A DNA stretch of 64,000 nt from a bacterium (GCA_043719295.1 JAYSUD010000001.1:28943-92942), one strand, 5' to 3'. Shown: positions 9,689 to 42,633, counted from the first letter of the stretch. The notes: a model not told the origin generated them from the letters alone. Numbers and translations: made by a program.

Positions 9689-9811
9689 TTTCGCGCATCT
9701 AAAGCAATTTACTTCATTTTAATTATTTATAAAAAATTTTAGAAATATCTCGATGCGTAACTGTGCATAAATAACTTCAGTATAAGTAGATAGACACGAT
9801 ATAATTCTTGT

Positions 9812-11851: not shown

Positions 11852-12740
11852 AAATGAGCTACAGAGCGTAGCGACAATAGCGAATTTTGTTCCCAGTTTC
11901 TGCTGCTGACCGAGAGAAATACTTTAAGCCTCAGCTTTGCTGTGCTTAAAGTATTTCTCAGCAGAAACTGCTGGAACTCTCCAACGCTTGGTAATCTCCG
12001 CACCTTGGTATCAAGTATATCGAATTTCCCTTCTTACAGAAGCTGTCCACTCATTGGATACTTTATTTCGTTTCACTCATAAAGTACCTCAATGAGTCTT
12101 GCAAAAGTGTCACACACTTTCTCACCCAGTTTCTGCTGCTGACTCAGAAAAATATTGTACGCCTCAGCTTTAGCTGTGCGTACAATATTTTTCAGCAGAA
12201 ACTGCTGGAACTCTCCAACAGCGACATAACTCTGCATACAGCTATCTTCAACAAAAAACTTCTGGAGCTACCACTCGAACGTAATTCATACTCTATTCTC
12301 TTGTGTGCTACTGAAATCGAGAAAGATCGAGAGTGAGCTAAGCGTTAGAGACGTCCAGCAGTTTCCGCCGATCATAGTTTAGAACACGGCTAGCGCCGAG
12401 TTTCTAAACTATTCTCTAGGGCAAGGCGGAAACTGGGACGCACCGTACTCTGGAGTAGAAGTTTGCTATTGTCGTTTGCATACTACTGAAATCGAGAAAG
12501 ATCGAGAGTGAGCTTAGCGTTGGAGACGTCCAGCGATTTTTGCTGAACAATACTGTCTGCACAGCTAACGCTGAGGCAGACAGTATTGTTCTGGGTCAGT
12601 AGCAAAAATCGGGACGGAAGTTCGTCATTGTCGCTACAGACAGTGGAGTTAACTTAAGGTTCGAGACGTCGATACCAAGCCCAGGAAAGGGCAAGGTACT
12701 GACGGAAATTCGCCATTGTCGTCTGCGACTCTGTGGCTCA
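11852..12740. repeat. Cluster of ~5 family-1 long palindromic hairpin elements (100-190 bp each), both orientations
   Basis: Units built from GTAGCGACAATAGCGAATTTCCGTCCCAGTTTCCGCC ...variable inner stem... CTCAGCTAACGCTGAGG ...GGCGGAAACTGCTGGACGTCTCCAAC. Copies at ~11868-11987, 12125-12224, 12342-12480, 12517-12633, remnant 12660-12735. Confidence 0.8.
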
Positions 12741-12801
12741 TTCCTCTCCACAGTTATAAAGCGCCAAATAAGGGTTTGACGCGTTATAATTATTGAGAAT
12801 A

Positions 12802-12821
12802 CACAGTAATAAATACTGTGT
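12802..12821. promoter_or_regulatory. Perfect 8-bp-arm palindrome ACACAGTA-ATAA-TACTGTGT upstream of giant adhesin gene (candidate operator)
   Basis: Seen directly; located ~175 nt upstream of the RBS-supported start at 12995. Confidence 0.3.
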
Positions 12822-12994
12822 AGGTTGTATGTAACTGGATGAGGTTTTTCTCAAAAAAAAGAGGTGAGAATACTATAATATCCATATTTAAAGCGCTATA
12901 TTTTACAGTGTGTGCTTTTGTTGCATCCTTCTCTACAAAACTAGTACCAAGAAGAATATTTGTCACATACAACTCAATATTGAGGAGATTAAAA

Positions 12995-15900
12995 ATGTCG
13001 ATTATCACTGCCTTGATACTTGTTGGTATTGGTGGTGTGGGTGTGCACTATACATTTTCAAATATCTATGCAAGTGATCATAAGGGTAGTATTAAAAGCA
13101 CACTTTTGGTGTATCCTTCCACTGTATTAGATTCAACATGGGGTGGAGTTACCGATGCGCTCACTTCAGACTTGGATGAAGAATCGATGTATCAAGATTT
13201 TTCTGCACGTAATTCAGCGTATATACTTTTGACTTCAGATGATTCTACTCAACCATCAAATGCAAATACACAATCGCAAAATCAAGTTGTCCCACAACCT
13301 GACGAAAAAACAGATGATGCACCTTTAATTCCTTCAGATGAAACTCAATCATCAGTACTTGAATCTGATGTTGTACCAGATGCTCCTGCTCTAGAAACTG
13401 AAACTGAAAGTGTGAGTGAACCAGTGACTTTAAAAAAGGCTACTGCTTCAGTTTTTACATTCCTTGAAACAGTAACTCGATTATTTCCTTTCGCACAAGA
13501 GACGGTACAAGAACCAGTAAGTGAACAAGAATCAGATTCTGAAGCATCGCTTGAGAATATACCCCAAGCTGAAGTTGTTGAAACTCTGAAGCCAACAGTT
13601 GTTGAAGTTCAAACTGTAGAGGAGCTGCCAGTACCTCTAGAAAATTCAACTGTTTCGACAACATCTCCATCAATAACTCTGCCAATGCTAGCGCCAGTTA
13701 CAAATGAAACGAAAGAAGTAAATGTACAACAGCAAAATTCAGTGCAACACTCGATCACTCTTTCTGATTTTAGTATTCCCGATTTAAAAACAGGTGAATT
13801 TATTACCAACGTTCAGTTGCGTATGTCACTTGGAGCTAAGTACAAAGATCAAGATAGTGAGGTCAAACCAGAAATATCAATTAGTTACAAAACACCATCA
13901 TCGACAAGTGATGTGGGTACCATTATTCTTGAAGATGAAGTTTCAAATGCACTCAATGGTGGATACTTTTTGTTTGCTCTTCCTGAAATTCTCACAGCTT
14001 CAGAGTTACGTGATATACACATTACCGTAACTTACAAAGGTGACATAAAAAAACTTGACGGAGTATTTCTTGATGCAGTATGGCTTGAGATAGATGTTGA
14101 GAGCATTGATAAAGAGGCTCTTGAAGAACAGGTATTAATTGATACACAAATAAAACAGGATGAACCTTTGCTCCACACAATGATTAGCGAACAGGTGGAT
14201 TTTACACGAAGCGAACTTCCAAAATTCAGTCTTAAGTACAATGCACAACGTAATATTGCTGTTCGGTTTTTCCGAGATTTATTTGGTCGTGATTTAGCAA
14301 CTATTGAAGATGTCTCATTTGTACACAGCGATGCTGGTGATATTGGCGCTACTCCTAAAATTGATATGACAAGTGAAGGCTTGCTCACTATTCAGTTTGA
14401 GGAAAATGACATGCGTCGCTTGAAGCCTGGGGAATACACAGTTGAACTTGAGGTAAACGAAGGGGGGGTATCATACACCGACTCATTCTCTTTCCAGTGG
14501 GGACTTTTGTCTTTGAACTCTAACAAGAGTGTCTATACACCAAATGAAACTGCAACAATATCCTTGGGTTCTTTGTCACTTAATGGAAACACTGTATGTG
14601 ATGCAAATTTGCGGTTGTATATTATTGATGGAGCTAATGGTGTTTCAAAATCTGAGGTTACTCCTTCTGGTTTGTGTAACGGAAATAATGTTATTGATAT
14701 TGCAGACTACAGTGCCACATTTATACCAACAACAGTTGGTATACATGAAATGTATCTTGAGCGAATTGATGTTGACGGTACCATTATGTCCCACACTTCC
14801 GATACCTTTGATGTTCGAGAAGTAGTACCACTATCAATAGAGAGAAATGGACCAAGTAGAATCTATCCGAGAGCAACCTATCCGATGGAGCTTATTGTAG
14901 ATGGAAAGTCACCATGGGTAGGAACACTTGTTGAAGTTGTTCCTTCTGATTTTGTAATTTCAGAAACTGATGCGATCGTTACCAAGAGAGGTGATTTCCA
15001 AGAACTTACATGGGATATCAGTGTTGATGTAGATGCGCCACAGACAGTCTCATATACATTTGATGCTCCAGATATTTCACCATTTTTGTATACGGTAGGA
15101 AAAGCAAAACTGGTGGGTATACAACCCGAACCTCAGGTTATTGATGATGCTCAAGTGGAGGTATTGGTACCAAGTGAAGTAGAGCCACTTTCTCCTGTTA
15201 CTGTCCCCGATGATACAGTAATTGATGTCATTGATGCTACAGATACTCCTATTGCTGTAGAGCCCATAGAATCAGTCCCCGAAACAATAGCTACTTCAAG
15301 CACAGAAAGTTCTCTTGAAGAAAAAGACATGCAACCTGTTGAAGAGGAAAAAACGTTGTTAGAAAAAATAATTGATTTTATTCCGTTTATTGGAAACGAT
15401 GAAACGCCCGCATCATCTGAGGTTGTTGAACCCGTATCGGAACTGCAAGTATCTACACCAGAACTTCAAGAGCCTACACCTATGGATCAGGTTGTTGCAT
15501 CAGAAATCGATGCGCTAACTCCTTCATCAGCAGTAGAAACAGAAGTCATAGCTTCTTCAACAATCTTAATGAGTGAAGCTGTTACTGTAGAAGCAATGGG
15601 GGGTGAGACAGTTTTTGAAGAGCATCGTCAATGGCAAATTGCGTCTGATGCAACGGGAAGTATGATTGCCTATTGGACTTCAGGTGCCTCCGTGCCATCA
15701 GGATGGACTTGCTTGTCATGTGGCTCTGGAACTTTTTACCAAAAGTTTGTACGTGGTGGAGCAACTTATAATCAAACAGGAGGCGCTGCTACGCATACGC
15801 ACAACGCAAGTGGTACCGTCAATGCTTCAGCTGTAGCTAACTCAGAAAACAGAGCAGGTGTTAACGTCGCACTTAATTCTCACTCACACACATACACACC

Positions 15901-18900
15901 GACAATTACTGCGTCTACAACATTACCTGCGTACAGAAATTTACGAGTAATTCAAAACAATAGTGCAGGGGAACCTGCAACAGTTCCGGCTGGAGTAGTG
16001 ATGCTGTTTGACGGTACCTTGCCTTCAGGTTGGGTACAATACGCAGCACTTACCAATCGCTATCCACGGGGAGAAAATACTATTGCAAGTTTAGGTACCT
16101 CAACGCACCGCCATACTATCTCCGGTTCAACCCTTGCAGCTTCAGGATCTACTGTTGACGGAAGAGCGGGAGGAACACAGGTTAGCGCATCAGCTAATAC
16201 TCATACGCATACCGTTAGTTCAAATACTGGTTTTGTTAATCATGAACCACCATACGTAAGTGTTATTTTTGCCACTTCAACAACCGCAACTAACACACCA
16301 ACGGGAGCTGTTACTATGTGGACTGATACACCGCCTGCACAATGGCAAAACGCTTCTGCGCAAGCAAGCGATCCATTTTTTGATAAGTTTATTAAGGGTT
16401 CAGCAACCTATGGAACAACTGGAGGAACTGAAACCCATACACACAGTAGTGTTAACGGTATAACAAGTAGTGCTGCAGTTGGAACACAAAATGCACGTAC
16501 GGGGGCAACAGGTGCAAACACTACGCACACTCATGCTGTTGATGTAAGTAGTTTTACAACAACAAATCATTTGCCACCATATATAACTGCAATTTTTGGT
16601 CGAAAGTATGGACCTGTACCCCTCTACACACAAAGTGGTTTTAAGTTTTATGTAAACACCAATGCATCAACACCAACTGACGCGTGGCCAGTTGGAGGGG
16701 ACGCACTATTGGAAAATGAGCCAATTGATGCTGCAAGTGTACCGGTTAAAAACGCTGACGTCGTACGTATCCGAACACAGCTTTCCGTTTCTAACTCTAC
16801 TTCTACAGCAGAATCTTTTAAGTTACAGTTTGCTTCAACAACAGCTTTGTGTACTGACGCTACAACATGGACTGATGTTGGAAATGCGACATCTTCAGCA
16901 CTATGGCGTGGGTACAACAATGCGGGAGTAAGTGATGGAGCGACGCTGTCATCTTCAACAATTTCGGGTACCGATGTATATGGTACCTATGAAGAAATAA
17001 ACCCTACGGTAACGATGCCAAATACTGTTGGTATTGCACGTCAAGGTGAGTGGGACTTTGTGGTGCAGCAAAATGCTGCACTTGAAGGAACTACGTATTG
17101 TTTCAGAATGGTTAAGAGCAACGGCACACCTCTATTTGCGTATGCGCAGTATCCAAGTGTTGTAACAAATGAGGCACCTAATGCACCTTCATTATCAAAA
17201 CTTTTTGACAACGAAAAAACAGCTACAACAACTCCTGATTTTGAGTTTTCGGCTTCTGATAATGAGTCAAATGATTTAACGTATCAAATTCAAATTGATG
17301 ATGACGCGTTGTTTGGATCGGTAACCGTTGATAGAAACAGTGTTACAAACTCTGCGCAATTTGAAAACCTCGCAACTCCAGCAGATAAAGATCCATTTAC
17401 ACAAGGTGAGCTAATTCGTTTTAATAACACCACAGGACTGACTAACGGCACAACCTACTATTGGCGTGTTCGTGCGAGCGACCCAACGGGTTCAAATACA
17501 CAAGGAAGTTGGTCGACGGTTCGAAGCTTCACTGTTGACACAGCACTAACTTTTTCTACGTGGTTTCAAACAACTGATGAGCAGTTTGATACCAACACAC
17601 TTAATGGTGTTGATGGAGTAACTGATCAAGCGCAACTGCGAGTTGGTTCGACCACGGGAACTATGTACAGTGATCCAGTTACTTTTAGTGAGGGACTTGT
17701 TGGTACTGCATGGGGCTCGTTTGCATTTAATGATACTGAAACAAGTAGCGATTTGAAATACACTATTCAATACAATAATGGCGGGACATGGACTGATATT
17801 CCTGATTCCGTTCTTTCTGGAAACGTTGCAGGTTTTGATACTTCACCAGTGTCGCTTCTTGGAGTTAATAAAACAGTGTATAGCGAGTTGCGTATTGAAG
17901 CGAATTTTGTAAACTCTGGTGCCTCACCGTCTTTACAGAACTGGTCTGTTACCTGGGCATACTTAATTGAAACACCAACAATCAATGCTCCTTTTGGTAA
18001 TGAAAAGGTAGCAACTACAACACCCACCTTTGAGTTCACTACAACTGATCCACAAAACGATAGTTTGCAATATCAAATACAATGGTCAACAACCTACGCG
18101 TTTACTGCTTCAACAACACGCAACTCAAATGTGAATGCTGGTTTTTCAAACGCGACAAACGGTGGGGATACTGACCCGTTTAATTCAGGTGATACTATTC
18201 GCTTTAAAATACAGGCGGGCGATGCATTAACAAATGGCACAACCTACTGGTGGCGTGTACGTGCACGTGACCCGTTAGGAAGTAATACCTATTCGTTCTT
18301 TGCTGACCCGAGGAGTCTTACTGTCGATACTACGGTAACAGTTTCAACATGGTTTCAAACTACACGATCACAATTTGGAAATAACACACTTTCAAATACG
18401 TATGCGCGGGGGACAGATGTGATTACTGTTGCAACAACTACACAGACGTCCCTTATTGCCTACGCAGAAGGAACAGTAACAACTCCACGCTATCGAACGT
18501 GGGATGGTTCAGTGTGGTCAATTGAAAGCTCAGCGCTTGATGTTGGTGCAACCATAAACTGGACGGTAACTAAAGCATCACCTACAGAAAGTGAATACAT
18601 TCTTGCAACCATGGGTACTGATGCAGATGTGAACGTACAAGTATTTAAAAATGGTGCATGGGGAAATTTACAAGAAGTAACTGCGTCGATTTCAAATACT
18701 ACTATGCGTGGATTTGATGTGGGATATGAGCAGTCTTCAGGAGATGCAATGGTCGTAACCTGTGATGGGGATGCAAATCCGACCTATTGGATGTGGAATG
18801 GAAGTGCCTGGTCGAATGAGGGTGCCATTGGTTTGTCAGCTGGAAATACCTGTGGTTGGATTAAACTTATTTCTGATCCAACGTCAGATGAAATTATTGC

Positions 18901-29725: not shown

Positions 29726-29729
29726 TTGA

Positions 29730-29870
29730 GATGATATGATAAGGACTTACGCAAACGAGTGCAATTCGAGGCGTACAAGTAAAATGTGACGAGGTGTACG
29801 GTATAGTACATAGAGGAATATTTTGCGCAGTACAACGAAGAAGTGTGCCGTTTGCGGAAGTCCTAAAAAA
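29730..29870 (-). repeat. Family-2 element, reverse orientation (copy R6)
   Basis: Reverse complement reads ...CGCAAAATATTCCTCTATGTACTATACCGTACACCTCGTCACATTTTACTTGTACGCCTCGAATTGCAC, near-identical to the core of the 46897-47020 copy. Confidence 0.55.
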
Positions 29871-29871
29871 T

Positions 29872-31350
29872 ATGAGAGCTCTTGTTAGTATTATCATCTT
29901 CACGTTACTCTATCTGCCTTTTTCTGCGTCGGTTACTTTTGCGGTTGATACTGAAGCTCCAGAGATTTCTAATGTAAAAATTGCGTCAACAACTGACAAT
30001 GCGATTACCGTTACGTGGGAAACTGATGAGGATTCAGACTCCTTAATTAACTATGGCTTTCAAGAAGACTACGGAATTGTGCGTGTACCTGAAGCAGATA
30101 AAAAGGCACACACAATAACACTTGATAACCTTGATCCAGGACGCGTCTATTACTTTCGAGTAGTATCAGCCGATGGTGAAGGGAACCAAGGAATTTCAGC
30201 TGACTATAAAGTGCAAACAACCGGAACTCCTCAAGCTATGGGAGAAGGGCAGGCAGATGGACAAGGGGAAGGGCAAGCAACTCCAACGCCACAAGATGTT
30301 CAAAAAATTCAAGAAATAATTAAAGAGATAAAAGATCCTAAACAGCTTGAAGAGATTCTCAATGAAACCGTTAAAGCAATTCAGGGTATTACTGAAGACT
30401 TAACTATTGTCGGTCCACCGACAGTAATTCCAGAAACTACAACTGCGCTCGTTAAGTGGACAACTGACCGTGAAGCAAACTCGACCGTATTTTTCTCTTC
30501 AACAGATGAATATGTCCCAGGCAGTTATGTGTACTCTCAAGCAAGTACTAACGGTGTTACCACAGACCACGAGGTTCGACTTATCGGACTTACCTCATTT
30601 ACCGAATACCACTTTAAAGTTGTTTCAACTGATGCGGTAAATATAACTGGTGAAAGTCGTGACTATACATTCAAAACAAAGGCATCACTTCCTGAAATTC
30701 GAAACTTACGAATTATTAAAGTAGAAGAAAACTCCGCAACGCTTGCATGGGATACAACCGTTCCTGCAAAAGCACTTGTTGAATACCAAGACTTATCAAC
30801 GGGGGGTCAAAACTCAAAAGGACGACCAACCCTCGCCACAACACATCAGATGCGTATTGATGATCTTACCTTGGGTACGCGGTACTTGGCATTTGTGACT
30901 GCAGAAAACGGAGGAGGAGATAGAGTAAAAAGCCAACCTATTACGTTCATTACGGTTAAAGATAATGCACCACCAATCATTAGTAACGTAACCAATGAAT
31001 CAACACTGTTCCCAGGAGGTGATTCACGTGTCCAGAGTATTGTTGAGTGGAAAACAGATGAAGCTTCTTCGTGTGTGATGACGTATCGTGAAGGAGTTGC
31101 AGGAGGAGTTGAGCCAACAGTTATTGAACAAGTGTCAATTTCATATACCGATAAACACGTTGAGGTAATTGTTGATTTTGCACCTGCTACCGTGTATCAA
31201 TTCTGGTTAAACTGTAGTGATGAAGCAGGGAATGCTGTTCAGTCGGAAAACTTTGTGCTCTTTACTCCAATACAAGAAAAAAACATTATTGACTTGATTC
31301 TTGAAAACTTCCAGTCAACGTTCGGATGGGTTAAGAATATTGGGGCGTAA
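29872..31350 (+). CDS. Secreted protein with ~4 tandem fibronectin type III-like domains
   Basis: Signal peptide MRALVSIIIFTLLYLPFSASVTFA; repeated ...TVTWETDE.S...Y..V...TH.I.L..L.PG..Y.FRVVS.D..GN modules. Start moved to ATG 29872 (the track ORF's N-terminal extension overlaps repeat R6). Confidence 0.65.
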   Translation: MRALVSIIIFTLLYLPFSASVTFAVDTEAPEISNVKIASTTDNAITVTWETDEDSDSLINYGFQEDYGIVRVPEADKKAHTITLDNLDPGRVYYFRVVSADGEGNQGISADYKVQTTGTPQAMGEGQADGQGEGQATPTPQDVQKIQEIIKEIKDPKQLEEILNETVKAIQGITEDLTIVGPPTVIPETTTALVKWTTDREANSTVFFSSTDEYVPGSYVYSQASTNGVTTDHEVRLIGLTSFTEYHFKVVSTDAVNITGESRDYTFKTKASLPEIRNLRIIKVEENSATLAWDTTVPAKALVEYQDLSTGGQNSKGRPTLATTHQMRIDDLTLGTRYLAFVTAENGGGDRVKSQPITFITVKDNAPPIISNVTNESTLFPGGDSRVQSIVEWKTDEASSCVMTYREGVAGGVEPTVIEQVSISYTDKHVEVIVDFAPATVYQFWLNCSDEAGNAVQSENFVLFTPIQEKNIIDLILENFQSTFGWVKNIGA

Positions 31351-31793
31351 AAATGAGCAAACGAGCGTAGCGATTATTGCGAATTTTCGTCCAACTTTCC
31401 GCTGTTGCCCGAGAACCTAGTTCATATGTGTAGCGACAGCGGAAGATATGAACTAGGTTCAGCGGAAAGTTCTGGACGTCTCCAACGCTTAGATAACCCT
31501 CGACCTTTCTCAATTTCGAAGATGTGGATACAAAGTAGGTTTGTTTTGGATGAGTGTGTTTTAATAGACGAATAGAAAAGTGTAGACGTATTTGATTGTA
31601 TCTAGCAAATTGAGCGCGATATGCGTTTGAGGGTTCCAGCAGTTTCTGCTCACCTTGCGTTGGAGACGTCCAGCAGTTTCCGCCGAGAGAACTTTAGAAC
31701 TCAGCTAACGCTGAGGTTCGAAAGTTCTCTCTAGGGCAAGGCGGAAACTGGGACAGGAATTCAAAATAGTCACTACGTTCCTTTTTTCATTTC
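31351..31793. repeat. Two family-1 hairpin elements (31365-31493 '+' form; 31631-31776 '-' form) ending in a conserved leader abutting the ABC gene start
   Basis: GTTGGAGACGTCCAGCAGTTTCCGCC GAGAGAACTTTAGAAC TCAGCTAACGCTGAGG TTCGAAAGTTCTCTC ...GGCGGAAACTGGGACAGGAATTCAAAATAGTCACTACGTTCCTTTTTTCATTTCATG. Confidence 0.8.
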
Positions 31794-33116
31794 ATGGCTA
31801 AACCCCTCATCATCTGTCGTAACTTGGACATTACCTATAACAAGGGTAAGTCAAATGAATTTAAGGCGCTTGTGAATGCAAGTACTGATATTTATGAGGG
31901 TGAGTACATCATTCTCTTTGGTGCTTCGGGTTCGGGGAAATCTACACTGATGTACGCTATTCAGGGATCACTACCACCAGGAGGAGGGACGATGCTTATT
32001 GGTGGGGAAGACATCTATTCAATTCCCGTTGATGATAGAATCTACTTTCAGCGGTACGTGATGGGAATTATTTTCCAGTCGTTTAACCTCATTGGTTCGT
32101 TGTCAGTTCTTGATAACGTGGCACTCCCTATGATTTTCTGTAATGCTGATAAACCAACACGCGAACGTCGTGCGCAATCGCTCCTTGAACGTTTCGGAGT
32201 GGGTCACGTATCACATAAAATCCCGTCCATGCTTTCAGGAGGTCAGCAACAGCGTGTGTCTGTTGCCCGTTCGATGGTTAACGATCCAAAAATTCTCTTG
32301 GCTGACGAACCCACAGGAAACCTCGACTCTGTTTCAACACAACAAGTAATGGATAAAATTGATGAGATTAATACGTTCGATAAACGTACTATTATCATGG
32401 TGTCGCACAACGCCGCACACTTAAGTTACGCACACCGCGTGTATTACCTTAAAGATGGGTACATTGTTCGTGAGGTAGTAAATCCACAACGTAAACAAAT
32501 TAAACCGGTAAAAGAAGGCGAGACTATTGTGACGGAACTTGAACAGCTCGCGCGATTGTATCCATACGACTCTATTGAATCACTCCGTGTTAAGAGTTTA
32601 GTTAACTATGTGACACAAGACTATACATTTAGTCAGATTGAACGTCTTGAGCGTGCGTTGGAGTATTTTATTGGAGGGAAAATAGACGATGTGGCAGCAA
32701 TAAAGATGATGATGTCGCCGTATGAACGGGGAGGTATTGGTATTCCTGAAAAAGAAGCTAAACGGATGCTTCATGTTGCAAGTAAAATGCTTTCTCAAGC
32801 AGACGACATTAGACGATTCCGAAAGCAGTATGATCAAGCGCATACTTTTTTTGATCAACATAAGCTTTCAGAACGCCTCCGCGATCACTTGCTCTACGCA
32901 CACCACATGAAACTAACTAAGAAACAAGATGAGAATCTTGTGGAGGTAATTGCCGATAGAGTGGTTGGCGTTTCAGGTGAAGATGATTTTCATGAACGCT
33001 TAGGTAAAACAGTCTCACAAGGTGGGCTTGCGTTATCAAGAGATGAGCAAGATAGCATCACGAGGTATTTTGAGAAGATTATTGCGCAGGGGGTTGACGT
33101 TAGTTATAAGAATTAG
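31794..33116 (+). CDS. ABC transporter ATP-binding protein (MacB/LolD-type NBD) with ~200-aa helical C-terminal extension
   Basis: Walker A GASGSGKST, Q-loop, signature LSGGQQQRVSVARS, Walker B LLADEPTGNLD, H-loop VSHN; extra C-terminal region without recognised motif. Confidence 0.85.
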   Translation: MAKPLIICRNLDITYNKGKSNEFKALVNASTDIYEGEYIILFGASGSGKSTLMYAIQGSLPPGGGTMLIGGEDIYSIPVDDRIYFQRYVMGIIFQSFNLIGSLSVLDNVALPMIFCNADKPTRERRAQSLLERFGVGHVSHKIPSMLSGGQQQRVSVARSMVNDPKILLADEPTGNLDSVSTQQVMDKIDEINTFDKRTIIMVSHNAAHLSYAHRVYYLKDGYIVREVVNPQRKQIKPVKEGETIVTELEQLARLYPYDSIESLRVKSLVNYVTQDYTFSQIERLERALEYFIGGKIDDVAAIKMMMSPYERGGIGIPEKEAKRMLHVASKMLSQADDIRRFRKQYDQAHTFFDQHKLSERLRDHLLYAHHMKLTKKQDENLVEVIADRVVGVSGEDDFHERLGKTVSQGGLALSRDEQDSITRYFEKIIAQGVDVSYKN

Positions 33117-33206
33117 TGGGCAACTCAAGTCTTGCTGTTTCTGGGGATACTGCGAGTACATAGAAAGTACTTGTGTGGTGTAATAGAGGAATAAAGGTAA
33201 GTGCTA

Positions 33207-33326
33207 GCGTTGGAGACGTCCAGCAGTTTCCGCCGAGAGAACTTTAGAACACAGCTAGCGCTGAGGTTCAAAAGTCCTCTCTAGGGCAAGGCGGAAACTG
33301 GGACAGAAGTTCAAAATAGTCATTAC
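33207..33326. repeat. Family-1 hairpin element between ABC ATPase and permease genes, with same conserved leader up to the permease ATG
   Basis: GTTGGAGACGTCCAGCAGTTTCCGCC...GGCGGAAACTGGGACAGAAGTTCAAAATAGTCATTACATTCCTTTTTTCACTTCATG, ~90% identical to 31657-31796. Confidence 0.8.
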
Positions 33327-33343
33327 ATTCCTTTTTTCACTTC

Positions 33344-34552: not shown

Positions 34553-34646
34553 GGTATATCCTGTTTATAACACAGCTGGTAAAATGTGTATAACTCTGCA
34601 TCTTTTCGTAAAGTTTTAGTTACAATACTAGTAGTTACTAATATTT

Positions 34647-36500: not shown

Positions 36501-36599
36501 AAAACATTCGCAGCAAAACAGTTAGTTATTAGCTGTAATCTTCTTGCGTTCTTAAGGTTTATTGTTGATAATTAACACGTCAAACCCGCAACACTAAAA

Positions 36600-37544
36600 A
36601 TGAAATTTGTTAAATTATTTTGCATAGGGTTGCTCCTTTTTACCCAATTGGGAGCACCATTTGCATTGGCAGGTTTCGGTGTTACTCCCCCCTACGTTCG
36701 TAATACAAGCCTCACACGAAACTCTACTTATGAGCAACAAATTCTTCTAGTTAGAGGAGATCCTGCCTTTCCACTTAAAGCAACAGTAATTGTTGATGCA
36801 CCAGAAATCTTAACGTGGATTGAAATTGTTGAAGGGACTGAGTTTGAGCTTCCAAAAGGTGAACAAAAAGTTCCAATGACCGTGCGAATCAAGGTCCCGA
36901 AAGATGCAGAGTTTAAAAACTATACTGGAGCAATTCGTGTCAAAACAGGTGCATCAAACGATGCAGTCGCGTCAGGTGCCGTTAATATTTCTTTGGGTGC
37001 ACAGATTGATATTGAGCTTGATGTCATTGATAAAGAGATTAAAGATTTTCGTATTCAGAAGATTGGAATATCTGACTTAAATGCAGGTCACAAATTCGCA
37101 TGGCTCTACTTCCCAGGAAAGATCAATTTTAATATGCTTGTAGAGAATATTGGTAACGTTGACGTCGCTCCTTCAAAAGTAACGTTCAGCATCTTTGACG
37201 CAACTGGAAACGTACTTCTTGAAGATATTAAAAATAAAGGCTCAATCAAAGAAGTAGCCCCGTATGGAGCAGAACAAGTAACGGCATCACTTCCAACACG
37301 ATTACCACCAGGTACCTACATAGCGCGATATAAGATTTTTAACGATGACGACATCAAACAAGAGGGTGAGGTTAATGTAAACGTACTGCCGTACGGGACA
37401 TTACAAGTTGCAGGTTTTGGTTTTATAGGTCTTTCACTTGCACATCAGATTTCTGTTATTCTCCCAATCCTCGCACTCTTGTCAATTATAATCTTTACCA
37501 TATACACAGTTAAGGAGCGTCGACTAAGAAAAAATGCCGTATAA
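36600..37544 (+). CDS. CscA/DUF916-like cell-surface protein with C-terminal TM anchor
   Basis: Signal peptide, two beta-sandwich-like halves (…GEQKVPMTVRIKVPKDAEFKNYTGAIRV…; …ENIGNVDVAPSKVTFSIFDATGN…), C-terminal TM ILPILALLSIIIFTIYTV + KERRLRKN; directly follows a WxL-like protein. Confidence 0.5.
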   Translation: MKFVKLFCIGLLLFTQLGAPFALAGFGVTPPYVRNTSLTRNSTYEQQILLVRGDPAFPLKATVIVDAPEILTWIEIVEGTEFELPKGEQKVPMTVRIKVPKDAEFKNYTGAIRVKTGASNDAVASGAVNISLGAQIDIELDVIDKEIKDFRIQKIGISDLNAGHKFAWLYFPGKINFNMLVENIGNVDVAPSKVTFSIFDATGNVLLEDIKNKGSIKEVAPYGAEQVTASLPTRLPPGTYIARYKIFNDDDIKQEGEVNVNVLPYGTLQVAGFGFIGLSLAHQISVILPILALLSIIIFTIYTVKERRLRKNAV

Positions 37545-37547
37545 CGT

Positions 37548-38684
37548 ATGTATGCAACATTGTACGCTTTCAACAAAATTGTAGTTGCATTGCTCATAAT
37601 TCTTTTTCTCGTACAGCCACTTAATTCATTTGCTCAGATAAGCCCAGGGTACGTTTCAACTACTACTTTTACCTTAAGTATTTGCGGAAATGTGCTAGTG
37701 GATGACGGTGAGGAGTGTGATGTGCTTGGAGAAACTGGTGGATACAGCACTACTATCATAGGGCGTCAGTGTGATGTTGATTGTCAGTATGGACCCTACT
37801 GTGGTGATGCAATTTTACAGACTATTTTTGGTGAGGAATGTGACGACGGAAACAATGCTGATGCCGATTTTTGTAGTGCTGAATGTACCATTGAACCAGC
37901 AGGAAGTGGCGGTGGAGGCTCTTCAGGAGGTGGAAGTGGGGGAAGTGGAGGAAGTACTGAAGATCTAGGAGATACAAAAGTGAGTATTACCGGAAGGGGG
38001 TTTCCAAGTCAAACAGTACACGTTCTTTTGGATTCAAGAGAAATAAGTACGGTTCGTGCAGATAGCACAGGTAAATTTACCTTTGCAACAAATGCATCTC
38101 CTGGGACTGTCTCTATGGGTTTTTGGTCACTTGACCTCAATAGAATTAAATCAATTACCTACAATACAACGTTCGATGTAACGCAAGGAGCAATTACAAA
38201 CGTTAATAGTGTTTTGATTCCTCCAACACTTGCAGTTGATAAAGCAGTATTGAATTCTGGCGACACTATAAACTTCAGTGGTCAGACAATACCAAACACA
38301 AAAGTTGAAGTGCATATTAATAACAGTGAAAAAGTACTCACGACAACTTCAGGTGCCAACGGTGTTTGGACAGTACCGTATGTCACAACTGGTTTAAGCA
38401 ACAAAGAGCATACCGCACGCGCACGTTTTATTTTGGGTGCTGGTACACTAACCACACAAAGTAGTTTTAGTACCACGCTGCAGCTTGCTGTGGGGGTTGC
38501 AGGTCGTTCCTCAACACCATCAGACTTGAATCGAGATGGAAACATAAATCTTACTGACTTTTCTATTTTAATTTTCTGGTGGGGAAAAGACGGCGGTAAC
38601 TCAGATCCAAAAGCCGACATCAACGGAAATGGAAATGTAGGCCTAGAAGACTTTTCGATCTTACTATTCAACTGGACGGGCTAA
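37548..38684 (+). CDS. Secreted protein with Myxococcus-type cysteine-rich repeats, Gly/Ser linker, Ig-like region and C-terminal dockerin
   Basis: CGNVLVDDGEECDVLGE...CGDAILQTIFGEECDDGNNADADFCSAECTIE fits the C-x-DG-x-EECDDGN-x-DGDGCS-x-C repeat; C-terminus DLNRDGNINLTDFSILIFWWGK / DINGNGNVGLEDFSILLFNWTG dockerin repeats. Confidence 0.65.
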   Translation: MYATLYAFNKIVVALLIILFLVQPLNSFAQISPGYVSTTTFTLSICGNVLVDDGEECDVLGETGGYSTTIIGRQCDVDCQYGPYCGDAILQTIFGEECDDGNNADADFCSAECTIEPAGSGGGGSSGGGSGGSGGSTEDLGDTKVSITGRGFPSQTVHVLLDSREISTVRADSTGKFTFATNASPGTVSMGFWSLDLNRIKSITYNTTFDVTQGAITNVNSVLIPPTLAVDKAVLNSGDTINFSGQTIPNTKVEVHINNSEKVLTTTSGANGVWTVPYVTTGLSNKEHTARARFILGAGTLTTQSSFSTTLQLAVGVAGRSSTPSDLNRDGNINLTDFSILIFWWGKDGGNSDPKADINGNGNVGLEDFSILLFNWTG

Positions 38685-38687
38685 AGC

Positions 38688-38806
38688 GCAAAAAACAAAC
38701 TCATCTACTTCGTTGCGATGCAGAAATTTTTCTTCAATGTACTCAATGTACACCTCAGAAAAACTTCTTTCCGCGCCTCGTATCTAAGTCTGTTTTTTGT
38801 GCTTTA
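38688..38806 (+). repeat. Family-2 element (copy R2)
   Basis: Outer inverted repeat CTAAAGCGCAAAAAACAAACTCA/TAAGTCTGTTTTTTGTGCTTTAG around core ACTTCGTTGCGATGCAGAAATTTTTCTTC...CGCGCCTCGTA. Confidence 0.6.
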
Positions 38807-38825
38807 GTGAAATGAGCCACAGAGC

Positions 38826-39320
38826 GCAGCGACAATGGCGAATTTCGTTCCCAATTTTATGCTGCTGCCCGAGAACATACTGTAGAACCTCGGCGTTAGC
38901 CGTGTTCTACAGTATGTTCAGCAGAAAATGAGAACTCTCAAATGCTAAATTTACTCAGTCTGTTGTAGCGACAATGGCAAATTTCCGTCCCAATTTTCGC
39001 GTTGACCAAGAGTTCTGTTCTGAGCCTCGGCGTAAGCCGTGCTCTGAATAGAACTCAGCGGAAATTGCTGGACGTCTCTATAATTCCAGTTAACTCAGTC
39101 TGTTGTAGCGACTATTACGAACTTTACCTAATTTTCAACGACCTTAAGGGAGTATGAAAATGGATATACCCTTGTGGTGCCGTCCCAATTTCAGCGTTGC
39201 CCGAGAGTGAGTAGTAGAACCTTGGCGTTAGCAGTGTTCTACGAAGCACGGAGCAGAAAATCTTGCGTCCCAAACGCTATGGAATCTCTGTCTACTGTAG
39301 CGACTGTGGCAAAAAAATTG
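38826..39320. repeat. Cluster of ~4 family-1 hairpin elements plus leader remnants
   Basis: Copies ~38826-38945, 38965-39079, 39176-39280 with leader motif GTAGCGACAATGGC(G/A)AATTTC and loop CCTCGGCGTTAGCCGTG; leader-only remnants at ~39095-39130 and ~39292-39320. Confidence 0.75.
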
Positions 39321-39357
39321 ATCGTCTGCACCCCTCCCTCCACTAATGACTTTATAT

Positions 39358-39379
39358 ATTACTCCAATCGATTGGAGTA
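39358..39379. promoter_or_regulatory. Perfect palindrome TTACTCCAATCGATTGGAGTAA at 3' end of regulator gene (identical copy at 39807-39826)
   Basis: Seen directly; the two identical 20-bp palindromes bracket the 39381..39791 gene. Confidence 0.5.
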
Positions 39380-39380
39380 A

Positions 39381-39791
39381 TTAAGAGCGTATACCTTTGT
39401 ACCTATCGAGACCGACACGGTGGGGTATTATGCCTCCGGCATGTAAGAGTGAATCTACGACTTCAAGGATCGCTATATAAACCTCGAGATGATTTTTAAG
39501 TGTTTTTGTTACTTCTACATAAGCATCACCACTTCTCCTTGCCTGTATGTTTTTTATTGTAGATTGACTTAGTTTTAAAGTTTCAGCTATACGATAACTT
39601 GAATACCCCTCTTTAAGCATCACAATAACAGCAAGTCGTTTAGCGAGCATCAATCGTTCCTCAGGTCCAATCAGTCCATTGAGAAATACACTGATTTTAT
39701 CAGGTGCTAGTTCTCCTAAAACTGTATCCAATTGTTTGTTCAAACTTTTGATGTTCTTGGCAGGGAGTAAATTTTTATTTATGCGTACCAT
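39381..39791 (-). CDS. TrpR/YerC-YecD-like small DNA-binding regulator
   Basis: ...EERLMLAKRLAVIVMLKEGYSSYRIAETLKLSQSTIKNIQARRSG resembles the YerC/TrpR-like HTH (…LAQRLEVARMLREG.TYQDI...ISSATISRV). My hand index puts the stop codon one base earlier, so gene and palindrome coordinates carry a possible ±1 error. Confidence 0.5.
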   Translation of the reverse strand: MVRINKNLLPAKNIKSLNKQLDTVLGELAPDKISVFLNGLIGPEERLMLAKRLAVIVMLKEGYSSYRIAETLKLSQSTIKNIQARRSGDAYVEVTKTLKNHLEVYIAILEVVDSLLHAGGIIPHRVGLDRYKGIRS

Positions 39792-39806
39792 GTACTAAGT
39801 ATAATA

Positions 39807-39826
39807 TACTCCAATCGATTGGAGTA
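39807..39826. promoter_or_regulatory. Palindrome TACTCCAATCGATTGGAGTA immediately upstream (promoter region) of the minus-strand regulator gene; candidate autoregulatory operator
   Basis: Lies 16 bp upstream of the start codon, adjacent to a TATTAT -10-like hexamer on the minus strand. Confidence 0.45.
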
Positions 39827-40008
39827 ACAGTTTTTATGCTAGTTCTAGTATCGTTTTATAAGTTCAATTAATTTTGTTGAGATTTTGTGTAAGATAATTG
39901 AACCAACAAATTGGTATGGTATGTGAAATGTAATTGGTATCACTGCACACATCTGTATCTCTCTCTAAACTAAATCTCGAATTTTGAGTCAAAAGAAAAT
40001 GAGTTCTG

Positions 40009-40440
40009 TTGACGTTGGAGACGCACAATCGGTTTTCACTAAACATGATTGCAAGCACAGCTAATGCTGAGGCAAAAGAGTTATGCTCTATGACAGCAAC
40101 AGAAACTGGGATGGGAAATTACAAGATAGTTTTGTGTCGGTGTTGGAGTGTTCCAGCGGTTTTTTGTTGAACATAATATTGCACACGGCAAGCCGAGGTG
40201 CAATATTATGTTCTTTGGCAACAACAAAAACCGGGTGAGAAAGTGTGGAACACTTTCGCAAGACTCTTTGAGAGACTTTGTGAGAGAAGCGAAATAAAGT
40301 ATCCAATGAGTGGACAGCTTCTGTTAAGAAGATAAATTCGCAATAGTCGCTACTTCTTACAGAAGCTGTTTAGGTCGTCACTATTTTATTCAAAATAGTA
40401 GTCAACCTCTTGCAAAAGCGTCCCACGCTTTTTCACTCGT
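40009..40440. repeat. Cluster of degenerate family-1 elements (two '-' copies ~40013-40138, 40140-40258) plus family-3/leader hairpin modules (40295-40355, 40405-40440)
   Basis: GTTGGAGTGTTCCAGCGGTTTTTTGTTG AACATAATATTGCAC...GTGCAATATTATGTTC ...CAACAACAAAAACCGGG; CAGCTTCTGTTAAGAAG...CTTCTTACAGAAGCTG hairpin enclosing GTAGCGACTATTGCGAATT; CTTGCAAAAGCGTCCCACGCTTTTTCAC. Confidence 0.65.
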
Positions 40441-40736
40441 TTGCTTATTTTTTATGTGTATAACCCATCAATTATTTTTTACAACAAAGCTACAATGAAG
40501 GAGTACTTGTTGCAGATGTAGTCCTTTAGAACTACTGCGTTACGTCGCGTCGTAACGGGCATCTTCAGCCGGATGTTATGCAACGAGTGTACGTACATAT
40601 CTAGTCTCGTGCCTTGGGCGTGGAGACCCGATGCACAACTTCTTTTTGCCCTACCACAAGCAAAATTAAATCTTGAATCTTTGCATACAAACAAAGAAAT
40701 AAGAAAGGTGTGCGTTAAAAACCAACGAAAGAGCAT

Positions 40737-41882
40737 ATGTTGAAAACGGAAAAAACCGTTATATTGCTCAAAACTATTGCAACGGTGGCAGGCTTCGCGA
40801 TCATTTTATGGTCACTTGGTCTGCCGTCACTCCGCTTTGCGGACGCCGCAAACATCACGGATGTTAGCGACACACTCTCAGATTCAGCACCGAGTGCTGC
40901 ATCAGATCACACGCTTTCGTTCGTAACTCCAACAGGAGTTTTAAACGGAGCAACCACAACCATCACGTTTCCAGCAGGATTCACGGGAATTGGTGCACTT
41001 GGTGTTGAAGATGTAGACTTTGCGTCTTCATCTGATATGTCAATTGCAACCACGTGTAGCGGTTCTGAACGAGTAAGATTTATTCCTTCAGGCCAGACGG
41101 TAAGTTTTGTTTTCTGTCCAGGTGACGGAGGAGTGCTTGCAGCTGGTGCTACCACTACTATCCAAATTGGTTTTAATGCCACATTTGGTTCAGCGGGTAA
41201 TTCTCGGATATCGAATCCAGCAGGAGAAGGATCATATGAAATCGGCTTTACGGTCGGTGCATCTGATTCTGGATGGACTCGAGTTGTAATCTTAAGTGAT
41301 GTACTTGTTACAGCGGCTGTTGACACAATCTTTACGTTCGCTGTCGCGGGCTTAGGTGCGGGTCAAACAGTTAATGGGACAACAACAACAGGAATTACTG
41401 GTTCAACCACTATTCCTTTTGGTACACTCGCAGCTGGAGTAGCAACTCGAACAGCACAAAGTCTCACAGTAAATACAAATGCGGCTAATGGGTATGTTGT
41501 CACCGTACAACTTGACCAACCTCTTCAGTCATCAACTGGAGCGGACATTGACGGATTTGCTCAAGGATCGTACACAAATACTCCCGTTGCATGGGTAGCT
41601 CCAACAAGTGTTGTTGGTAGCGAAAACACTTATGGACACTGGGGTATAACTTCTGACGATGCAACCACAACACGAAGCGTAGGAGATGAGTTCAATGCTA
41701 ATGAATTTGCATCAGCAAGCACATCACCTCGCGTAGTTATGAGCCATACAGGACCAACAAATGGTACTATAACTGGCGAAGGGACTACACGTGTAGGTTA
41801 CAAAATTCAGATTGGTGGACTCCAAGAGGCTGGAGATGATTACACTGCTACGCTTACGTACGTAGCAACTCCTACTTTTTAA
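40737..41882 (+). CDS. Secreted cell-surface protein, paralog of 3084..4151 (shared N-terminal module and WxL-like C-terminal domain)
   Basis: ADAANITDVSDTLSDS...HTLSFVTPTGV...TITFPAGF; C-terminus ...TYGHWGITSDDATTTRSV...GDDYTATLTYVATPTF. Confidence 0.6.
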   Translation: MLKTEKTVILLKTIATVAGFAIILWSLGLPSLRFADAANITDVSDTLSDSAPSAASDHTLSFVTPTGVLNGATTTITFPAGFTGIGALGVEDVDFASSSDMSIATTCSGSERVRFIPSGQTVSFVFCPGDGGVLAAGATTTIQIGFNATFGSAGNSRISNPAGEGSYEIGFTVGASDSGWTRVVILSDVLVTAAVDTIFTFAVAGLGAGQTVNGTTTTGITGSTTIPFGTLAAGVATRTAQSLTVNTNAANGYVVTVQLDQPLQSSTGADIDGFAQGSYTNTPVAWVAPTSVVGSENTYGHWGITSDDATTTRSVGDEFNANEFASASTSPRVVMSHTGPTNGTITGEGTTRVGYKIQIGGLQEAGDDYTATLTYVATPTF

Positions 41883-41989
41883 AGAAATAATATACTCGCG
41901 TTACATTATTTTCTTGTACGGTTTATACGAAATATCTGTCGCGTCAGAGAATGCCAGTAAACCGAAAAATTGCAATAGCAAGAGCATCA

Positions 41990-42024
41990 AAAAACCTATC
42001 TCCCACCACGAGTAGGTTTTTTGT
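41990..42024 (+). terminator. Rho-independent terminator after 40737..41882
   Basis: AAAAACCTATCTCCCACCACGAGTAGGTTTTTTG: 8-bp stem AAAACCTA/TAGGTTTT plus T-run. Confidence 0.6.
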
Positions 42025-42029
42025 TTGTG

Positions 42030-42600
42030 AAATGAGCTACAGAGTGAAAAAGTCTGGGAGACTTTTGCAAGAGGTTGACTACTATTTTGAATAAAATAGT
42101 GACAACCTGAACAGCTTCTGTAAGAAGTAGCGACAATAGCGAATTTCCGTCCCAGTTTCCGCCTTGCCCGAGAGTATAGTTTAGAACCTCGGCGTTAGCC
42201 GTGTTCTAAACTATGATCGGCGGAAACTGCTGGACGTCTCCAAAACTAAAACTAACTCTGTCTACTGTAGCGACTATTCTGAATTTCCGTCAGTGATTTT
42301 TATTCCTAATAAAATCATCGACGTCTCTAAAACTACAATATACTTTGTCAGCAGTAGCGACAATAGCGAATTTCCGCCCCAGTTTCTTTCCTACAGAAAC
42401 GGTTCACTTTGTCACTTTTTCTTCAATATATTAAAGAAAAAGTAGTCAAAGTCTTGCGAAGTGACGTTTAGTCACTTCTCACCTTGCCCGAGAGTATAGT
42501 TTAGAACCTCGGCGCTAGCCGTGTTCTAAACTGTGATCGGCGGAAACTGCTGGACGTCCCGAACGTTTAGTTAAATTAGCTCATCTCAAACAAAGTACTA
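42030..42600. repeat. Cluster of family-1 elements (42128-42245; short copy 42268-42340; 42352-42565 carrying a nested extra hairpin) preceded by family-3 hairpin (42040-42075)
   Basis: GTAGCGACAATAGCGAATTTCCGTCCCAGTTTCCGCCTTGCCCGAGAGTATAGTTTAGAACCTCGGCGTTAGCCGTGTTCTAAACTATGATCGGCGGAAACTGCTGGACGTCTCCAA; the third copy has a ~80-bp insertion forming its own stem (GTCACTTTTTCTTCAATATATTAAAGAAAAAGTAGTCAAAG...). Confidence 0.75.
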
Positions 42601-42633
42601 CTTTACATATCAATTTGTGCATAAAACTTCAAT

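Follow-up and report, generated by a model that had tools for sequence, protein, structure and literature searches.

The REPINs are doublets of REP sequences that form hairpins and are mobilised by RAYT transposases of the Y1/HUH type (Bertels and Rainey, 2011, PMC3116915), and compensatory changes are common in these mobile hairpins (PMC3116915). A REP itself is defined as a palindrome of 20–40 bp one end of which is immediately adjoined by an unpaired GTAG or CGTC tag (PMC3733652). The ERIC (or IRU) elements of Enterobacteriaceae are imperfect palindromes of about 127 bp, and the pneumococcal BOX repeats are modular, with the arrangement boxA-boxB(n)-boxC; RNA-level effects have been documented for ERIC, Correia and BOX repeats, which occasionally supply 5′ leader functions (PMC3184786). 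Here, a repeat called family-1 is described in a bacterial stretch of 64,000 nt (GCA_043719295.1 JAYSUD010000001.1:28943-92942), referred to as the window, to which all positions given below belong. On the best reading, family-1 is previously undescribed and behaves most like REPINs, ERIC and pneumococcal BOX; on balance, it probably represents an old, clade-specific and still dynamic group of modular hairpin repeats kept at the DNA level, some copies of which have been retained in untranslated regions (UTRs).

Judged from the best named homologues of TGT (62122-63369) and of the ABC ATPase (31794-33116), which belong to Candidatus Kaiserbacteria / Patescibacteria, the host is an ultra-small bacterium of Candidatus Kaiserbacteria, within the Candidate Phyla Radiation (CPR). 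A reading of family-1 as cyanobacterial small dispersed repeats (SDRs) of the Nostoc type or as miniature inverted-repeat transposable elements, or MITEs, was dropped on the same homologues. Syntenic contigs of relatives (L108–L116 and L120–L125) were gathered via homologues of the ATPase and come from samples SRR35217777, JGI 3300049015/3300049022/3300049044, SRR28154531/32, SRR20217180, ERZ28573538 and JGI 3300015360; the ATPase proteins are 86–100% identical, and fourfold-degenerate sites are 25–49% identical, so that the divergence among these lineages is deep and the fourfold sites are saturated. Related genomes also carry family-1, often as a short form that lacks the inner hairpin.

A family-1 unit measures 125–140 nt and, read on the element's own strand, starts with an unpaired L-box (GTAGCGACAATAGCGAATTTCC) containing two TAGCGA direct repeats 9 nt apart, which is preceded on the first unit of an array only by an outer terminus (AAATGAGCTACAGAGC). 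A foot of 5 bp (CGTCC / GGACG, or GTTCC / GGAAC in one subfamily), with a 2-nt bulge (CT) on its 3′ side, leads into an outer stem of 11–12 bp and variable sequence, a one-sided internal loop of 8–9 nt (TTGCCCGAGAG), an inner stem of 13–16 bp that is the most variable part, and a tip (CCTCRGCGYTAGCYGTG) made of 4 bp and a tetraloop with a conserved T:T mismatch; an R-box (CTGGACGTCTCCAACGC) and a variable tail of 20–30 nt follow. Every long copy takes this same fold, with RNA energies of −32 to −49 kcal/mol and z-scores of −6 to −11, and DNA folding gives about −30 kcal/mol for either strand alike. In the short forms, found at 12645-12721 and 42267-42340 and also in L035 (a metagenome contig), L108, L112, L113, L115 and L125, the inner hairpin is missing and the loop (TTTCCTAGA) is the counterpart of the internal loop of the long form. 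The outer arm proposed in the initial annotation holds in one part, since CGTCC-CAGTTTCCGCC does pair with GGCGGAAACTG-ct-GGACG, whereas GTAGCGACAATAGCGAATTTCC turned out to be the unpaired left box. Its description of the unit was further amended in that the two ends are not mutual inverted repeats, long and short forms exist side by side, some copies are interrupted by a second repeat (family-2), and the copy at 33201-33326 is part of a duplication.

At least 16 palindromic intergenic copies in both orientations had been claimed. A covariance model (R1; 127 positions, 36 base pairs) found 15 copies in the window (E < 0.03; 19–140 bits) and none elsewhere in the 64 kb, and an nhmmer profile made from nine hand-picked seed copies gave 14 full or nearly full copies plus fragments on both strands from 11868 to 42577. 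Counting fragments of L-box and R-box and two short forms, the total reaches about 20, with nine or ten copies per strand, in line with the claim. The copies are confined to the ranges 11852-12743, 31351-31793, 33201-33343, 38808-39320, 40006-40442 and 42030-42590, and on the map of open reading frames (ORFs) they occupy six large intergenic gaps (11852-12838, 31351-31793, 33117-33343, 38685-39380, 39792-40736 and 41883-42633), the only ones in this part of the window to exceed 220 bp. Exact matches to the L-box, the R-box and the tip number 5, 8 and 11, respectively, with 0.00–0.05 expected for each in dinucleotide-preserving shuffles. Plus-strand copies begin 0–1 nt past stop codons. The pairwise identity among copies is 50–94%, which supports the view that they are old and do not stem from a recent burst.

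That the stems of this hairpin covary between copies, as first proposed, was confirmed in several ways. In a model-based alignment of 21 sequences, 27 of the 36 pairs carry changes on both sides, and the both-side-change cells number 122, compared to 37.7 ± 5.6 in shuffled alignments (0 of 500 reach the observed value) and to 10–34 when the 3′ partners are slid by 1–3 columns (3–10 times lower). With 26 distinct sequences, relatives included, there are 170 such cells against 52.7 in shuffles, and 90% of the cells pair, a share that falls to 36–45% upon sliding; RNAalifold on a plain MAFFT alignment concurs (18 of 31 pairs). Covariation cells are not independent events, as some inner stems are common to several copies, but at least 12 distinct inner-stem alleles, each with near-perfect pairing, together with several outer-stem types make it certain that multiple independent matched changes have taken place. 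The covariation in family-1 is real. The case that would have spoken for a recent MITE spread, near-identical copies with target-site duplications and no covariation, was not encountered in the window: the copies are diverged, pairing has been preserved through many double changes, and no target-site duplication was seen at the boundaries compared with L108 and L110.

The initial annotation went a step further and took the compensatory changes to mean that family-1 is not mobile DNA. This step is not supported, because REPINs are mobile DNA and covary too (PMC3116915), and because the sites are filled in some lineages and empty in others. The gap between the ATPase and permease genes measures 227 bp in the window, where it holds a copy, compared to 1 bp in L108–L111, 24 bp in L115 and 29 bp in L112, and in L114 and L116 it is occupied by a different repeat (family-3). 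The array 42030-42590 starts exactly past the T-run of a terminator, and at the same site in L108 the next gene follows without an array; the 1.6-kb composite 38808-40442 is also missing from its site in L108. Close relatives differ as well: L108 and L110 (compared over L108 8000-12600) encode the same ATPase protein and show 0–1 mismatches per 100 bp over 1.9 kb upstream, L110 being without the element, and from the element site downstream the divergence rises to 2–5%, with synonymous changes within the ATPase gene, a jump that indicates a recombination breakpoint at the element site. Some copies encroach on genes. In L120, copies lie within the 3′ end of a fn3 gene, of which a relic C-terminus is left, and in L035 a gene read by eye as rplT (ribosomal protein L20) takes its final two codons and its stop from the terminus.

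Additionally, frames and inner hairpins have separate histories. The copy at 11868 and L124:2482 are identical in the frame (53/53) and in the tip (14/14) and share 12 of the 28 inner-stem positions, every change being compensated; conversely, L124:2482 and L120:2869 agree in 45 of 53 frame positions and carry the tip in flipped orientation with an identical inner stem (28/28). The frame types F1–F3 are each found with two or three different inner stems, across genomes and loci, which means that part of the covariation comes from the swapping of whole palindromic cassettes. Family-2 is nested in family-1 copies at fixed points (12031, 40354 and 42126), either between CAGAG(C) and GTAGCGAC or just past the L-box. 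The copy 33201-33326 had been considered as a discrete insertion and this was rejected; it lies within a segmental duplication of about 200 bp that comprises the ATPase promoter, the 5′UTR with the element and the start-codon context, and the same promoter/5′UTR module is duplicated in L124 with a different hairpin.

The stems are nearly pure in Watson-Crick pairs. When each 5′ arm is aligned to the reverse complement of its own 3′ arm, 713 positions are Watson-Crick and 24 are wobbles, i.e., G:T or A:C between the arms (17 G:T and 7 A:C on the element top strand, about 3%); intact copies have 33–36 perfect pairs and 0–2 wobbles. With the sense strand of the neighbouring genes as reference, the wobbles split 9 to 11 in the window-centred set, without bias, and the counts in whole-unit folds are equal (40 and 40). 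Of 13 informative copies, about 10 have a marginally better fold on the sense strand, which gives no usable RNA signal. Many changes are AU-to-UA or AU-to-CG swaps, for which no G:U intermediate is possible, and both orientations are equally frequent. This purity, the two orientations and the array placed after a terminator are unlike the usual strand-specific structured RNA and fit a DNA palindrome.

How such repeats might persist can be outlined as follows. Copying, conversion or movement between intergenic sites as DNA would maintain the family, by way of a putative single-stranded DNA intermediate and a putative trans-acting enzyme. The sequence-conserved parts (the L-box with its TAGCGA repeats, the CGTCC/GGACG foot with the 2-nt bulge, the TTGCCCGAGAG loop, the asymmetric tip and the R-box) would be recognition features for a trans-acting factor not encoded in the island, and both stems would need only to pair in the single-stranded intermediate. 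The propagating lineages would be those with intact hairpins, and under such a requirement the copies would come to differ by matched changes on both arms. The inner hairpin would be a separate module, missing in the short forms and exchanged between frames as a whole palindrome. Elements would pile up where a compact genome tolerates insertion, just past stop codons or terminators and just before start codons; there, they would be co-transcribed as UTR hairpins, some of which would have been kept by the host, as in the 5′UTR of the ABC operon, with a possible effect on the mRNA.

The copy in that 5′UTR can be followed across lineages. Alignment A1 contains a conserved block (ATGTGGATACA...TGTGTTCTAATAG...ATAGAA) read as an extended −10 promoter (TGTGTTCTAAT), and the order promoter block, one or two minus-oriented copies, ATG recurs in the window, L108, L112, L114, L115, L120, L124 and L125. 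All copies before the ATPase ATG have a locus-specific L-box variant (GTAGTGACTATT.TGAATT), which makes their left end orthologous, and the block from L-box to ATG is the most conserved part of A1. The presence of an orthologous copy in at least six lineages whose fourfold sites are saturated supports the view that the copies are old. The hairpin between these shared ends is variable: short with outer stem GAATTAGC / GCTAATTC in L108, GACTTTTTC / GAAAAAGTC in L112 and AGGACTTTTTC / GAAAAAGTCCT in L115; long with CAGTTTCCGCC / GGCGGAAACTG in the window and L114, AAGTTTTTGTTG / CAACAAAAACTT in L124 and CAGTTTCTGC / GCAGAAACTG in L120, where the 5′ arm diverges beyond. This copy must be transcribed, and it has been retained at its site. 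L110, L111 and L116 lack the element upstream of an identical or 99.8% identical ATPase. In L116 (150-2189) a DNA methylase gene and an ORF of 339 aa lie before the ABC operon, the gap measures 4 bp and contains neither promoter block nor repeat, and the L116 ATPase is 99.8% identical in protein and only 86% in DNA.

Several observations weigh against repeats kept at the DNA level. Closely related copies carry lone uncompensated mismatches (31651 and 33201 compared to L114), whose persistence means that there is no instant correction from arm to arm. The frame of window copy 11868 is 100% identical to that of L124 at a non-orthologous site, and the L124 copy, which sits within a contig of 8 kb, escapes the assembly caveat given below for L114. 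Conservation extends to the one-sided loop, the bulge and the mismatch of the tip, which a purely selfish or mutational upkeep does not lead one to expect, and tip and frame point the same way in 11 out of 11 window copies, so that a strand-specific asymmetry is being maintained. The ABC 5′UTR hairpin is 97% identical between the window and L114, although the L114 contig ends inside it and its last 120 nt are open to repeat collapse in assembly, whereas fourfold sites are 38% identical, the adjoining stretch from L-box to ATG about 80% and coding DNA 79–83%. Conservation beyond neutral needs continued selection or recent exchange, and for this orthologous copy in-situ host selection is the simplest reading. 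Moreover, the unit has no terminal inverted repeats of the MITE type, as L-box and R-box share only AGCG...CGTCC; inverted repeats are confined to the outer ends of entire arrays, in which plus copies face minus ones. Comparison with L108 and L110 revealed no direct repeat at the boundaries, the relatives being too diverged or the site replaced, and neither a target-site duplication nor a clean excision footprint could be defined. No transposase with family-1 ends and no parent insertion sequence were found in the 64-kb window, and the evidence base consists of this window and about a dozen short related contigs.

The main alternative, serious even if we regard it as rather unlikely, is that family-1 is primarily an RNA element that acts in cis for the host within 5′ and 3′UTRs and is selected copy by copy in place; it could serve as an exonuclease barrier, as a processing site through which RNase III or RNase E punctuates operons, or as a hairpin-cluster terminator. 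It is best supported at the ABC 5′UTR, where the copy lies between an extended −10 box and the ATG across lineages and where the near-identity to L114 and the conserved L-box-to-ATG block are found; the position of plus copies right after stop codons, the conserved unpaired motifs and tip orientation, the strong covariation and the RNA-level effects of ERIC, Correia and BOX (PMC3184786) agree with it too. However, the sense strand shows no surplus of G:U (9 vs 11), the stems are almost purely Watson-Crick with many AU-to-UA swaps, and copies stand in both orientations relative to transcription, a fixed position and orientation being seen at the ABC 5′UTR only and not throughout the family. The array 42030-42590 follows a terminator, and the array 11852-12743 precedes a TATAAT-like box at about 12787 that was read by eye and at which a promoter scan called nothing. 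The element is also dispensable, as L110, L111 and L116 do without it. No U-tract follows a family-1 hairpin on either strand, and Rfam gave no match over the whole window at gathering thresholds and, at E ≤ 1 on 38700-42700 and 11800-12900, only a 16.7-bit chance match outside the elements. A role as intrinsic terminator was rejected since the hairpins lack a T-run on either strand; a genuine intrinsic terminator at 41990-42025 (AAAAAACCTA...TAGGTTTTTT), 91% conserved with L108, has one, which indicates that the organism uses U-tract terminators unlike the family-1 hairpins.

A more specific reading would make family-1 a hairpin-cassette element, in which a frame that is identical between species with saturated synonymous sites carries an exchangeable, always perfectly paired inner palindrome with an orientation-controlled tip. 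We consider it improbable, but, if true, it would imply, for streamlined CPR genomes, either a dedicated hairpin-templated copying or exchange (single-strand HUH-type or snap-back, not yet described) or a stem that serves as a programmable specificity determinant. Inner stems had also been tried as guides or antisense to local genes, and matches in the window did not exceed shuffled controls.

Selection-free upkeep, in which quasi-palindromes are kept perfect by template switching or arm-to-arm conversion during replication, is doubtful to a greater degree. Template-switch mutagenesis at quasi-palindromes is an established mechanism, and it would account for near-perfect arms, few wobble intermediates, many double transversions and the flipped tip in L120 and L121, a sign of recombination within the palindrome. 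Nevertheless, template switching should erase asymmetries, and the 8–9-nt one-sided loop, the 2-nt bulge and the T:T mismatch of the tip persist in nearly all copies; the concordance of tip and frame and the uncorrected recent mismatches in 31651 and 33201 are equally against it, and the L- and R-boxes and the cross-species conservation are left unexplained.

There is very little to recommend the proposal that every unit constitutes a small-RNA gene in its own right, complete with promoter and terminator. In its favour are the conservation of structure, tip and boxes and a weak excess of G:T on the element top strand (17 vs 7, p = 0.06), but neither an Rfam match nor signals resembling promoters or terminators in phase with the units were found, tandem units abut without spacers, and complementarity of the inner-stem arms to sequences in the window does not exceed chance. 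Hardly credible at all are recombination sites that delimit gene cassettes and are recognised as folded single-stranded DNA, like integron attC sites: conserved unpaired bases with variable stems, transcription units of the window mostly having minus copies on the 5′ side and plus copies on the 3′ side, and the TrpR-like gene at different loci in the window and L124 are in their favour, whereas the island has no integrase or recombinase, gene order is unchanged in relatives lacking the elements, so that synteny largely refutes them, the ends do not correspond to the inverted core sites that attC has, and the TrpR-like gene is flanked by its own palindromes rather than by family-1.

The individual copies, from left to right, illustrate the modular anatomy. 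Array A opens on the plus strand at 11852..12006 with the outer terminus AAATGAGCTACAGAGC, which begins 1 nt past the stop codon of gene 10286-11851, and a long form of frame F2 with inner stem GAAATACTTTAAGC (found by nhmmer; covariance model 126 bits; z −9.3). At 12020..12227 (+; 93.9 bits) a second long form of frame F2 has an L-box remnant split from its hairpin by a family-2 insertion (12031-12118). Three minus copies follow: a long form of frame F1 with an inner stem of the TATAGTTTAGAAC type and a 17-nt L-box insertion (12336..12478; 108 bits, and by alignment), a long form with outer stem CGATTTTTGCTAC and inner stem ACAATACTGTCTGC (12511..12637; 130.8 bits; z −10.8), and a short form with the outer terminus CTCTGTGGCTCATT (12645..12743; nhmmer fragments, fold and alignment of the terminal inverted repeat). 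Together, this last part and 11852-11888 make up a 37-nt terminal inverted repeat (33/37) that flanks the array.

Around the ABC genes, a terminus and a long form with a variant tip lie directly 3′ of the stop codon of gene 29794-31350 (31351..31508, +; 108.9 bits; z −8.4). They are followed on the minus strand by a truncated copy consisting only of the R-box and the 3′ half of the outer stem (31611..31652; nhmmer and sequence) and by the long form of frame F1 that constitutes the ABC ATPase 5′ copy (31651..31793; 133.9 bits; alignment A1). Upstream of the MacB-like permease gene, 33140..33343 (−) comprises the duplicated promoter-like block, the long form 33201-33326 and the start-codon context. 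Array C starts with a terminus and a long form (38808..38951, +; 115 bits) and continues with a long form (38965..39104, +; 126 bits) and an interrupted, degenerate one (39105..39320, +; L-box 39105-39135 and hairpin 39160-39283, then a further L-box fragment; nhmmer, 70.8 bits). On the minus strand there are a degenerate long form (40006..40133; 64 bits), a long form with an F3-like frame and inner stem ACATAATATTGCAC (40134..40262; 81.9 bits; z −6.3), and an L-box fragment with a family-2 insertion (40354-40436) and the outer terminus tcgtttgcttatttt (40334..40442), which is the right end of the 1.6-kb composite 38808-40442 enclosing the TrpR-like gene. The last array, on the plus strand, consists of a terminus, a family-2 insertion (42046-42126, minus) and the best-scoring long form 42127-42252 (together 42030..42262; 140.5 bits), a short form (CGTCAGTGATTTTTATT / AATAAAATCATCGACG; 42267..42340; nhmmer and fold), and a long form of frame F1 split by an insertion of about 85 nt and ended by a terminal TTAGCTCATCT (42354..42590; model matches 42354-42421 and 42458-42572).

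Family-2 (about 85 nt) shares the design of family-1, namely conserved asymmetric ends around a variable paired core. It consists of TTCTTACAGAAGCTGT, a variable palindrome and CTTGCAAAAGyGTCmCACrCTTTyTCAC, the asymmetric ends TTCTTACAGAAGCTGT...CTTTTTCAC being conserved, and occurs at 12031-12118 (+), 40354-40436 (+) and 42046-42126 (−) as well as in L035 (about 878-980), L112 (about 9690-9790) and L115 (about 8030-8086). The insertion of about 85 nt at 42400-42472 is partly family-2-like, but no family-2 head was found in it. Family-3 is a dispersed intergenic repeat (...CTTCGTTGCG.TGCAGAAA.TTTTC...GTAC...) with copies at 7463-7512, 38692-38741 and 46904-46953 in the window and in L114 (1461-1618), L116 (3517-3739) and L120 (about 2560-2650).

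The gene enclosed by the composite (39381-39791, minus, 136 aa; region 39355-39830) encodes a TrpR/YerC-like helix-turn-helix (HTH) protein and lies between two identical perfect palindromes (TACTCCAATCGATTGGAGTA). At the same site L108 has a single similar palindrome (16719-16738) and no gene, and L124 (345-835) has a TrpR-like gene at another locus, with another palindrome (TCACTATCATATATGATAGTGA) on its two sides. The bracketed gene could be a mobile one-gene cassette or its palindromes an operator pair; it was rejected as a transposase, being a plain YerC/TrpR-like HTH protein.

Other genes of the island encode giant surface proteins (cohesin, dockerin, fn3 and Big domains), a MacB-type ABC pair and a CPR Pam-pilin-like protein. 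The proteins 10286-11851 and 29794-31350, whose genes end just before plus copies, share a C-terminal motif (...VKKI.../...GWVKNI..., 11831-11851 and 31330-31350) that is retained in relatives too and may be a sorting signal; the repeat family D19 reaches into coding sequence because of this motif. Upstream of the Pam-pilin-like gene (40737-41882), a non-coding block of 250 nt (40489-40736) is 78% identical to L108 16870-17113 despite saturated fourfold sites; it has no Rfam match, its fold z-score is only −1.8, and it may represent either a long leader under conservation or a region bound by protein. Most genes of the window lack a Shine-Dalgarno sequence and many have a TAnAAT-like box 6–10 nt before the ATG (for example at 9812, 34647, 58812 and 62122), which suggests leaderless or very short-leader mRNAs and makes a long structured leader unusual for this organism.

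Family-1 was also looked for in other collections. A scan of 185,579 species-representative genomes with GRAAAYTGCTGGACGTCTCYAA gave one match, a chance hit inside a Chitinophagia coding sequence, so that family-1 is not visible among these representatives at that stringency. Metagenome contigs scanned with the R-box yielded 106 stretches, of which only that in L035 is a true copy, and viral, phage and plasmid collections had no genuine match. In the library searched, no paper mentioning CPR bacteria along with MITE or REP repeats was found.

These repeats matter for several reasons. CPR (Patescibacteria) genomes are small and tightly packed, and here up to about 1 kb per intergenic gap is made of structured repeats, with at least three structured repeat families in the lineage, one of them kept across species-level divergence yet changing between close strains. 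They break metagenome assemblies, an example being contig L114, which stops within a copy; recombination breakpoints coincide with them, L108 and L110 being a case in point; and they supply 5′UTRs in an organism mostly without Shine-Dalgarno sequences. Since the same frames occur with different stems at orthologous and non-orthologous sites, family-1 offers a test case for whether the covariation of REP-like hairpins serves the propagation of the element or a host RNA.

Among known systems, a CRISPR reading was rejected on anatomy and synteny. The statement in the initial annotation that no transposase or integrase accompanies the repeats is correct for 11.8–42.6 kb; farther off, the window contains a RAYT-like Y1/HUH ORF (678-1346, minus, 222 aa) with the HUH motif 'HYH' and the tyrosine motif 'YIHLNP', which reaches 24.1 bits for Pfam Y1_Tnp (cutoff 23) and E 1.3e-7 for NCBIfam REP_Tyr_transpos, below the cutoff of that model. 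It is flanked by a 23-nt palindrome (TGTGGGGTCTCGTAAACCCCACA) at 650, 1412 and 1454 (minus), with a fourth copy in the gene at 1185; all four copies in the window lie in 643-1480, and the pair at 1412-1476 looks like a REPIN doublet. A link with family-1 was rejected, because the palindrome beside this gene is a different one that occurs only there in the window. The PATEs derived from IS200/IS605 resemble family-1 in their asymmetric ends, hairpin recognition structures and the presence of the Y1/HUH family in the genome; they make no target duplication, and none was seen in family-1 at the sites compared. However, they have a sub-terminal hairpin at each end, a fixed tetra- or pentanucleotide target and a strand bias, whereas family-1 has a single central hairpin and neither a defined target nor a strand bias. 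Correia (CREE) and REP2 elements are likewise intergenic, lie immediately 5′ of genes, can give 5′UTR and start-codon context and differ in presence between close strains; Correia elements have 26-bp terminal inverted repeats, a TA duplication, an IHF site and promoters, none of which was found in family-1.

ERIC comes closer, as it shares the size, the imperfect palindromes, the intergenic position in both orientations, the co-transcription with neighbours and the old, diverged copies with internal insertions at fixed points, and it affects mRNA decay; it differs by its terminal inverted repeats, which family-1 lacks, by its TA duplications, which were not seen in family-1, by an unrelated sequence and by another host phylum. 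With BOX, family-1 has in common conserved end modules around a variable middle, stable predicted structures, an intergenic and transcribed position and no transposase of its own, but BOX varies in the number of boxB, whereas family-1 varies in the presence and identity of a nested palindromic module and in stem sequence. REPINs and family-1 are both non-coding, extragenic and long-lived in their lineage, occur singly, as inverted pairs and in tandem clusters, and form a long hairpin in which the recognition parts are conserved and the spacer needs only to pair, the pairing being preserved through compensatory changes. Family-1 does not carry the REP tag, since its GTAG stands 18–20 nt from the foot and CGTCC is paired (GTTCC in one subfamily); its conserved parts are asymmetric boxes outside the hairpin and inner loops instead of two inverted 25-nt REPs, and it is the larger element, with two stacked stems in 125–140 nt.

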